DNA from: Smutsia gigantea
Lineage: Eukaryota
Length of the DNA stretch: 64,000 bases
Assembly: GCA_032199065.1 (NCBI GenBank)
Contig: JAVSCE010011590.1
Span: 108,551 to 172,550 of the forward strand
Reading direction: 5' to 3'
Each line of letters opens with the position of its first letter. Within the stretch, counting starts at the first letter, position 1. Position numbers: made by a program. Positions 61,105 through 64,000 of the stretch are shown here, in pieces.

Positions 61105-64000
61105 GGGCACTAATGATAAAATAGTTAACATCTACTGAGCATTTATCATATGCTCAACAAGGTTCTAAGCCCCACACATTTATTAGCTAATTTAGTGTTC
61201 ATAGTCAAGTACTATTGCTTTGAGTCAGGTACTGTTATTACCATCTTCTAAGATATAAAGGTACTAAAACACTGAGATGTTAAGAAATTTGCCAAGGTTA
61301 ACATAGCTGGTTAAGTGATAGAGGATGGGTCTGAGCCCAGCCTGACTCCAGAACCTGTTAAGTACTACGCTATGCTTGCTCTCTGTATCTTACCTGACTT
61401 TTTAAAAAATAGAATTTGTAGTAGCTAGCCATGAAGTCACAAAGGTTTATTTTCAAAGATTCACATGTATATGTCAAAGCTTCTCAATTTCAACATAAGC
61501 CTTACCGTAAAATAAAAATGCTGTCATCATCTACTGTACATTCAGGACTTACAGCAGCCCAGTGTTCCAGGCTGGGAAGGTGAGATGCAGGTCTAGTTTC
61601 AGTCTCCTGAAATTTCATTTCTGCAAAAGACATAGCCAAAAACTAAAAGTATTTCAAGTGCTGGTGTTACTTTGAAATTTTTCTATTCCATCCCGTTCTC
61701 TGCTGAAACATGCAGGCACTGGTAAAGTACAGTCTGTCCCATTAGGTTCTTAAAATAACTTTTTAAGTTATACAGGAACATAGTAAAGTCAGAAAAAACA
61801 GGTAATAGGATGACCTATATGACCCAATTCTGGAGGCAGTAATTCCTAGTATTTGAGTATATCCTTCCAGATGATGTCTCAAATAAACACAAGTATATAG
61901 AAGTGTTTAAACATAAAATGGATTATACATATTGCTCTGTAACTTGTTTTTAATTTCATGTGCCCTGGCCTGCGGGGTCGACAACGGGAACCTAAGGAGG
62001 GGGTGCGCGAATGAAGAGGGACAGAAGCCACAGAAAACAGAAACAAGACAGGCTTTCTGATTAAGTCTCGTTTATTACAGGTTGGAGCAGAGAATATATA
62101 GGCATTACAGGGTGTGGTCTCTTCTGATTGGTTGCCCATTATGCTAACAAGGTATCCTGTAAAGTCTAGTCACGCACCGAGTTGTGCGCATGCGCAGCTG
62201 TCCCCGACGTCGGCAGCGAACCTAAGTGAGAACACTAGGCGGGAAGGTGTGGTGAAAGAGTAATCGAAACCTAAGACCTAAATCGAAACCTAAATACAAG
62301 ATGGAGTCTTATAACAAAATGGAGTCTGACTGATTTATCCGCTCCCCACATTCATGTATCATAAATACCCTTCCATTTCAAGGAACACCTGTATCGTAAC
62401 TTTTAAGTGTCCAAGTAGTGTTTCACTATATGATCTTGAAAAAATTGGTTTAACCATCTCTGGGATTCTCTTCATCTTATATATAAACTAATAAAATAGT
62501 GATTAGGTCAAAATTGCCATGTGGTTGAAAAAATGACACCCGCTACCAGTGCTTTTTCTGTAGTGTCTGAATTTTTAGGTCGAGGATTCTTGACCCTACC
62601 TAGTCTATCTATCTCAGAGATGTCATGAAAGATCAGAACACAACAAAGTGTTTGTAGTATCAAATGCATGATTCAAAGACTTACGAATTACTTGGGACCA
62701 GGGGCTAGATCCCTGGAGGAATTCCAAGCATCAGGATCCAATTCCAGGTGTTTGCCCTAGCTTTAGTCTGCTCAGAGCATGTATTTAATCAGGGTGATCA
62801 GCTGAAACACGGACTTGACATGCATTTCATCATGGCAAACTGTAAATGACTGGTGAAGGGCAAACCACTGCAGGCTCCTCATCCCTAAGCCAGGAAAACA
62901 CTCCCAAGGTTAGAACTAAGGCTTTCAACTACCAAATTTCAGCCACTAAGAACACTGAGCCCCAAAACTTGCCAGGTGATTAGAACTCCAAAGGCGGTAA
63001 AAATGAAGGTTTTGTTCTACACTTACCTCTTGCTCCAGATGAATCAGCTTCTCTCTAGGAATCAAGTTGAATTACAGGATCTATCAACTACCTAGCACCA
63101 TCTCTGGAAAATATAAGAATAATAAATACACAAAGGTTAAGATCACATGATCTGAATGCACACCAACCTACTCCACACCCAGTCACACCCATAGAGTCTC
63201 AAGGAAAATTAACCTGAAGGAAAATTGTTCATTCTTTATTTGAATCTCCATCCAGTAATATAACTTGACCCATCTATTTGGGAAATGTCATCAAATGCCC
63301 AAACTTAGTACCAGATTAGGACAGGACTTCTGTATAAGCTCAGTGTGGATAAAGAGAAGGTTCCTGTGGCCAGGATTCTCACGTGGCCCTAGTTGGCTTG
63401 CTCACTACACACGTGTGGGCAATATGTTGCTACTGACTGTGTGTGAAGAGCTCCGCTCAGTGCTCTGGGCGACACAGTGGCATGACCACAGAGCTGCAGG
63501 GCTGCAGAAGAGCAGTGACTGGAGTGGTGGTAGCACCAAGGACAGAGACTGGGACCGCTGCAGGGGCACAGAGGCCCAGAGGCAGAGACCAGCTTGCTGC
63601 AAGCAGACTCACTCTGAGTGGATGGGATTCTAGTGATTGACCTGCCACCGTGGGGAATAAAGTTGGATACATACCCTTTCACCCCAGGAACATTCCATTG
63701 TCATTCCTCGGTCTCACTGAATCCATAGTGAACTTGCCCGGGGCTAAAACCCATTGGCAAGACACTCAGCTTTTTGTATAAACTTAAAGTTTGGGTTTAA
63801 CTTTAGAGTTAGTCTAACCCACCTCTGAAAGTTGTAAGTCAACAGTCTCACAGTAAGAGAACAGGTATGCCAAAGGTAGGAGCCATGTGCTGGCTGCAAC
63901 CAGAGCTTGGCAGCCCTGTAAACAAATTCAGGGAGATGGTGTATACATGGCATGGGTTAATGCCAGCCTCTCCAAGTCCACAGAGTGTGTGACTACAGAA

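Follow-up and report, generated by a model that had tools for sequence, protein, structure and literature searches.

The giant pangolin Smutsia gigantea, an African species, very probably carries, in an intron of CCNB1IP1, a young solo long terminal repeat (LTR) of a class II retrovirus related to the simian retroviruses (SRV), which lies sense to the gene and is most likely a tolerated passenger there. The element was studied in the window, that is, the whole analysed stretch of 64,000 nucleotides (64 kb) from contig JAVSCE010011590.1 (positions 108,551 to 172,550 of the forward strand), and all positions given here are counted from the first letter of the window. There is strong support for reading the element as a solo class II ("ERVK"-type) retroviral LTR, inserted with a 6-bp target-site duplication and in sense orientation to CCNB1IP1. 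The element has the termini TG...CA, reading TGTGGGG...AGGGCA on the minus strand, and is bordered on both sides by the same hexamer (Table 1); a 390-bp element with these ends and an exact TTCATG duplication had been claimed at these coordinates in an earlier note on this DNA, and it is indeed there. Its position between the small nucleolar RNA (snoRNA) SNORD126 and coding exon 1 of CCNB1IP1, in gene orientation, is likewise as that note had it. The window has a single occurrence of the composite TTCATG-TG...CA-TTCATG, and 100 dinucleotide-preserving shuffles yielded none. Alignment to the orthologous intron shows that the host intron continues directly from both sides of the LTR, and because the host flanks are continuous there is no internal region at the LTR; both flanks are contiguous host intron, with no primer-binding site (PBS), no polypurine tract and no internal region beside the element.

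Empty orthologous sites

The orthologous locus of Manis javanica (L010, GCA_024605085.1) matches the window at about 89–92% identity, and its alignment skips from window position 62351 straight to 61964. The junction in this species reads ...TTTATGGTA-CATGAA-ATTAAAAAC..., with a single hexamer and without the element. At the locus of the otter Lutra lutra (L022) the alignment blocks meet directly at this position, the element is absent and the target hexamer, or its remnant, is single. Empty sites are thus present in two species, one of them from the sister order, and, both being precise, they show that the insertion is derived and arose in the window lineage. The comparison with orthologous loci had been proposed in the earlier note, which regarded a segment shared with distant mammals without duplications as the sign of an ancestral CpG island; the Manis javanica and otter sites both lack the element. 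A regulatory CpG-rich element of ancestral origin at the CCNB1IP1/SNORD126 locus, flanked by the hexamers through coincidence, would fit the observed/expected (o/e) CpG ratio of 0.79 and the promoter-type motifs, but it is already refuted by the precise junctions of the two empty sites and is further opposed by the homology to retroviral R-U5 presented below, so that we give it almost no credence. Another kind of insertion (a LINE-mediated retrocopy, with LINE for long interspersed element, a short interspersed element (SINE) or a DNA transposon) or an assembly artefact would agree with the single copy in the 64-kb window. This explanation is very improbable given the 6-bp duplication and clean host junctions, the absence of a poly(A) tail and of terminal inverted repeats beyond TG/CA, and the retroviral LTR homology, which stops exactly at the last base of the element.

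Relationship to betaretroviral LTRs

The likeness of the R-U5 part to Mason-Pfizer monkey virus (MPMV) was probed with a degenerate pattern against IMG/VR. Only two contigs matched, L017 (8557 nt) and L016 (8126 nt), each of them the complete genome of a retrovirus, and a second pattern added one more (L020, SRV-4). The Pol of L017, which is MPMV, shares 96% identity with the simian retrovirus 1 cluster, L016 is SRV-4, and the SRV-group identity of both was confirmed through Pol. In BLAST alignments, element positions 277–390 match the R-U5 of MPMV at 73% identity (E 2e-10) and SRV-4 at 75.9% identity (E 3.6e-14); the matches span 114–116 nt and run through the terminal CA to the last base. 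The search pattern itself ensured about 24 matching bases, and the retest was confined to the 82 nt of U5 beyond the pattern, where 59–61 of 84 columns are identical (z 6.4–7.4) and none of 2000 shuffles was as good.

Global alignment reveals further blocks common to the element and the SRV/MPMV LTRs, comprising a TGT..GGAGC.G start, GCATGCGC, TATA, A(A/T)TAAA about 20 nt after TATA, GAGACTT(A/G)ATCAGAA, CTGTCTTGT, AGGTTCC and the terminal CCCGC(A/G)GG.C.GG.CA. The LTRs of SRV-4 and MPMV/SRV-3 are similar in size (338–345 bp compared with 390 bp in the pangolin) and resemble the element in their start, in GCATGCGC upstream of a TATATA box and in a poly(A) hexamer that follows TATA by about 20 nt, implying a very short R. 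The pangolin LTR differs from them in its own 13–14-nt U3 repeats, in having a CCAAT box and in carrying AATAAA where they have ATTAAA; it is also endogenous and solo, lacking an attached PBS or genes. The assignment of the element to class II and to a type-D-like group follows from the 6-bp duplication, from the spacing of TATA and hexamer, which indicates a short R, and from the R-U5 homology, and this sequence comparison places it with the type-D (SRV-like) class II betaretroviral LTRs rather than with HERV-K proper. The label "ERV-K-type" used in the earlier note is therefore right in the broad RepeatMasker sense, but "HERV-K-like" is imprecise, as the relatives found are SRV-4 and MPMV. 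The LTR5 of HERV-K (HML-2), or "ERVK", compared by features only, shares the 6-bp duplication, the TG...CA ends and the start TGTGGGGA, which we take to be that of LTR5; in contrast, HERV-K (HML-2) LTRs are about 970 bp long, and the homology found here is with the SRV group and not with viruses like HERV-K or mouse mammary tumor virus (MMTV).

Two endogenous retroviruses (ERVs) of Manis pentadactyla, ERV-Beta.a-Mpen as well as ERV-Beta.b-Mpen, are betaretroviral with an MPMV-type PBS-Lys1,2, have unusually short LTRs of 387–388 nt with catalogued solo LTRs, group with DrERV/SMRV (SMRV, squirrel monkey retrovirus) and are described in Asian pangolins only (PMC12584738, 2025). Compared by description, they are like our element in their pangolin host and in an LTR length near 390 bp, which makes their relatedness a lead and not a result; they differ in their SMRV grouping, whereas the SMRV LTR is not significantly similar to the element.

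Layout of the LTR

The order expected of U3-R-U5 is found on the minus strand, with CCAAT, TATA, AATAAA, a CA dinucleotide 13 nt 3' of AATAAA and a GU-rich element following each other, and R-U5 is collinear with SRV/MPMV; the borders between the regions are deduced ones (Table 1). Those of R were set from the TATA spacing and by aligning the element with the beginning of the MPMV record (GCCACCATTAAATGAGACTTGATCAG). All motifs of the promoter set listed in the earlier note are present, although the NRF1-like motif does not precede the motif resembling a cAMP response element (CRE), as had been stated: the CRE-like motif comes first. Because of the position of the TATA box and the MPMV homology, any transcription from the LTR would be likely to start at about 62085–62065, at or just upstream of AATAAA, rather than near 62030–62060 as previously suggested, and cleavage is predicted near 62058.

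CpG content and age

The LTR contains 18 CpGs and has a CpG o/e ratio of 0.79, compared with 0.11–0.17 in the flanks and 0.24 in the whole window. Exogenous SRV/MPMV LTRs have ratios of 0.68–0.93, a range that includes the pangolin value. Over about 23 kb aligned between the window and Manis, 7% of the bases differ, and 59 of the 194 sites with CpG in either sequence have it in both, giving, for this neighbouring neutral sequence, a CpG retention per lineage of roughly 0.47 since the Manis split. As the LTR ratio matches that of the exogenous relatives while the flanking CpGs have decayed, few CpGs appear to have been lost and the LTR is probably considerably younger than the split between African and Asian pangolins, an estimate that presumes flank-like germline methylation and an exogenous-like starting CpG density. 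This split dates to about 38 million years ago. A degree of decay is hinted at by two CpG-to-CpA differences from SRV/MPMV, both located at conserved positions of U5. The high CpG content pointed out in the earlier note is real, but youth accounts for it no less well than protection from methylation would. GC-biased conversion was rejected as a source of the CpG richness of the LTR, since the weak-to-strong burst of the window is confined to 55.5–56.5 kb and is not regional.

Genomic context

The 5' exons of CCNB1IP1 were defined by nine public Manis-type RNA contigs (L001–L009), which derive from a locus without the insertion. The donor of the upstream 5' untranslated region (5'UTR) exon, AGAG/GTAAGT at 63027/63026, opens a 1406-nt intron (63026–61621) that houses both SNORD126 and the LTR, the latter lying 409 nt downstream of SNORD126 and 341 nt upstream of the next acceptor, that of the second 5'UTR exon. 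The splice sites of this 5'UTR exon read ...ctatgtcttttgcag/ at the acceptor and /gtaagg at the donor. This exon and SNORA79, both located between the LTR and coding exon 1, were absent from the earlier description. Two of the RNA contigs (L008 and L009) stretch the 5'UTR exon upstream to 61682 and 61760 (60–140 nt), which may represent intron retention or an internal start. The spliced 277-amino-acid CCNB1IP1 is identical to KAK2498921.1 of Smutsia gigantea, and TTC5 lies further downstream. An apparent split of CCNB1IP1 in the Manis RNA contigs, into calls of 108–118 and 203 amino acids, was dismissed as an artefact of open reading frame (ORF) calling and not a pseudogene, as the 277-amino-acid frame is intact.

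Table 1. Features of the window, with the LTR and its parts listed first
Feature	Position	Strand	Basis or remark
Solo LTR	61961-62350	minus	390 bp, reads TGTGGGGAGC...CCAGGGCA
Target-site duplication, copy upstream of LTR in gene orientation	62351-62356	minus	exact 6-bp repeat, CATGAA on minus
Target-site duplication, copy downstream of LTR	61955-61960	minus	exact 6-bp TTCATG
Predicted U3	62084-62350	minus	approximate, deduced boundary
Two CCATnTT (YY1-like) repeats in U3	62296-62327 (62322-62298 in the motif scan)	minus	motif scan
13-nt direct repeat in U3	62262-62293	minus	repeat scan
CRE-like motif CGACGTCG	62212-62205	minus	motif scan
NRF1-like motif GCGCATGCGC	62195-62186	minus	motif scan
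CCAAT	62131-62127	minus	motif scan
TATATAT	62100-62094	minus	motif scan
Predicted short R	62058-62083	minus	holds AATAAA; ends at the CA of TTAATCA/G
AATAAA	62076-62071	minus	motif scan; about 20 nt after TATA
Predicted U5	61961-62057	minus	GU-rich element and conserved terminus CCCGCAGGCCAGGGCA
GU-rich downstream element in predicted U5	62050-62028	minus	sequence
Upstream 5'UTR exon, 3' part	63027-63103	minus	RNA contigs L001/L003 and sequence; 5' limit uncertain
SNORD126	62765-62841	minus	Rfam RF01168, 105.8 bits, E 5e-23
CCNB1IP1 5'UTR exon, 115 nt	61620-61506	minus	nine Manis RNA contigs, 94-96% identity
SNORA79	60506-60653	minus	Rfam RF00600, 115.5 bits; intron between 5'UTR exon and coding exon 1
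CCNB1IP1 coding exons	56189-55893, 51248-50913, 49114-48914	minus	
Provirus remnant, reverse transcriptase fragment	26-170	plus	
Provirus remnant, integrase C-terminus and env ORFs	5392-7480	plus	
Provirus remnant, polypurine tract	7532-7545	plus	
Provirus remnant, 3' LTR	from 7546	plus	starts TGTTGGAGTTCTC

Proposed origin and effect on CCNB1IP1

In the origin that we propose, a provirus would have integrated in sense orientation into the first CCNB1IP1 intron, in the lineage leading to Smutsia gigantea and after its split from the Asian pangolins. The retroviral integrase would have made the 6-bp target duplication CATGAA, and recombination between the two LTRs would later have deleted the internal genes and left one LTR. 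Some 950 nt past the upstream donor, just beyond SNORD126, the sense poly(A) unit of this LTR could terminate a minor fraction of transcripts, and the LTR promoter could give rare transcripts reading into the 5'UTR exon. Judged from the DNA alone, the LTR is most likely a passenger that is tolerated and that affects CCNB1IP1 weakly at most. CCNB1IP1 is needed for meiotic crossing-over in mouse, and a strong effect is unlikely because the intron is short and the gene is essential for mouse meiosis.

In an alternative role, the LTR would have been co-opted as an additional, perhaps germline, promoter of CCNB1IP1, with transcripts that would start about 20–30 nt past TATA, cross U5 plus 341 nt of intron to reach the 5'UTR exon, and be spliced from there to the coding exon. 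The sense orientation, the intact TATA box with CCAAT, NRF1-like and ACGT-core motifs upstream and a CpG density compatible with an unmethylated state are consistent with such a role, as is the upstream extension of the Manis 5'UTR exon in L008 and L009, which indicates that read-in is tolerated. However, the canonical Manis transcripts begin upstream, with no need of the LTR, the predicted start coincides with AATAAA or falls just before it, and the high CpG density is equally explained by youth. On reading, no strong splice donor is seen between the predicted start and the 5'UTR exon, so the leader of an mRNA initiated in the LTR would exceed 500 nt and contain many upstream ATGs. We consider co-option as a promoter quite unlikely.

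The LTR could instead act mainly as an intronic polyadenylation site, truncating transcripts past SNORD126 and uncoupling the snoRNA from the CCNB1IP1 mRNA. It holds a complete sense unit for this, made up of AATAAA, the CA 13 nt further on and the GU-rich element (Table 1), a unit with homology to the R-U5 region that functions in SRV/MPMV polyadenylation, and sense intronic intracisternal A-particle (IAP) and early transposon (ETn) LTRs lead to premature polyadenylation in mouse. The intron is short (1.4 kb) and the unit sits some 950 nt past its 5' splice site, which argues against heavy use; in that setting, fast splicing and U1 suppression would usually limit intronic poly(A) sites, and strong truncation would be selected against, given the role of CCNB1IP1 in mouse meiosis; a main function as polyadenylation site is improbable. 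As predicted roles, which the earlier note had raised and which are plausible from the motifs, co-option as promoter and co-option as terminator thus each receive a small probability. The broader proposal, in which the LTR was recruited at CCNB1IP1/HEI10 as a germline promoter or as a terminator of SNORD126-only transcripts and owes its intact CpGs to being kept unmethylated, is also rather unlikely. The mouse IAP/ETn insertions offer a functional analogy only: they too are class II LTRs located in introns in gene orientation with a promoter and a poly(A) signal, and in sense position cause premature polyadenylation or ectopic promoter activity. They differ in that effects on host genes are known there, whereas the pangolin LTR is known from sequence.

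Searches for relatives and points of doubt

Several points weigh against the interpretation of the element as a young, SRV-related passenger. Self-BLAST finds no second copy of the LTR within the 64-kb window, and sequence and protein searches retrieved no provirus that carries it. The U3 region shares only short blocks with SRV/MPMV and is alignable to no reference; an unrelated U3 is usual between retroviral lineages. The SMRV LTR (L026) shows no significant similarity to the element, the age estimate depends on the premises given with it, and the absence of a major function is a default and not a result.

A protein search of public assemblies with the longest reading frame of the LTR yielded no candidates, and an exact-pattern scan of IMG/VR with the 5' end of the LTR gave 0 matches. 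An exact scan with an 18-mer from the NRF1 region gave 5 matches (L011–L015). Look-ups by exact sequence of the CCNB1IP1 protein of the window and of the Desmodus protein returned no record. A 20-mer compared with JGI metagenomes had one match, in a bacterial gene, which was discarded as chance. The search with MPMV Pol had no pangolin-named match among the best 120, and three Pol-bearing contigs (L023, L024, and L025, from the look-ups of P0166, P0176, and P0182) contain no similar LTR. The P0182 Pol cluster was rejected as a relative, as it corresponds to SMRV, whose LTR is not significantly similar. An IAP LTR query had no BLAST match in the window. Among the 12 listed of 15 papers on CCNB1IP1 together with SNORD126, none has an LTR as its subject at title and abstract level.

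Significance of the insertion

The element is an ordinary, fairly recent insertion of textbook pattern and matters little by itself, as one among the thousands of intronic solo LTRs that mammalian genomes contain. It provides a clean presence/absence marker between African and Asian pangolins. It also offers a testable case of a sense LTR with intact promoter and poly(A) motifs in an essential meiotic gene, within a short intron that hosts a snoRNA. The insertion shows that SRV/MPMV-like (type-D) betaretroviruses also colonised an African pangolin lineage, which complements the ERVs described from Manis pentadactyla in 2025 (PMC12584738).

Other features of the window

An extreme burst of weak-to-strong (W>S) substitutions, polarised with Manis javanica and otter, is found in the window lineage at 55500–56500 on the minus strand, around coding exon 1 of CCNB1IP1. 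The exon-1 alignment gives 29 W>S, 0 strong-to-weak (S>W) and 1 other change in the window lineage and 1, 4, and 0, respectively, in the Manis lineage. The bin 56000–56499 has 50 W>S and 0 S>W changes, and the remaining bins of 55–63.4 kb are roughly balanced. Identity to Manis is only 87% in coding exon 1 and 97% in the next coding exon, and the burst changes residues of the protein (CRIKLSG to CRLRLSG and CDQHGS to CDRHGS). It looks like a tract of GC-biased gene conversion lying on the first coding exon in a gene that promotes crossovers. At 57300–57800, about 1.1–1.6 kb upstream of coding exon 1, lies a CpG-rich segment with 56% GC and a CpG o/e ratio of 0.81, which Manis transcripts do not include and whose conservation with otter is poor (65%); the segment could represent an internal CpG island or else an alternative promoter.

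The remnant of another, different provirus of betaretrovirus-like (ERV-K-type) character occupies 26–7700 on the plus strand. It is broken by two L1 copies (635–2976 and 2976–5322, with 94% mutual identity), and another L1 cuts it near 7700. This remnant was rejected as the source of the solo LTR, the two LTRs being unrelated. Lineage-specific SINEs of the tested families are absent from the 64 kb, where MIR was the only match, as would suit the genome of a pangolin. The window holds many L1 copies, among them young ones at 880–2619, 3461–4652, 25000–26200, and 36800–39000 on the plus strand, which are 84–94% identical to each other and contain open ORF2 fragments of up to 579 amino acids.

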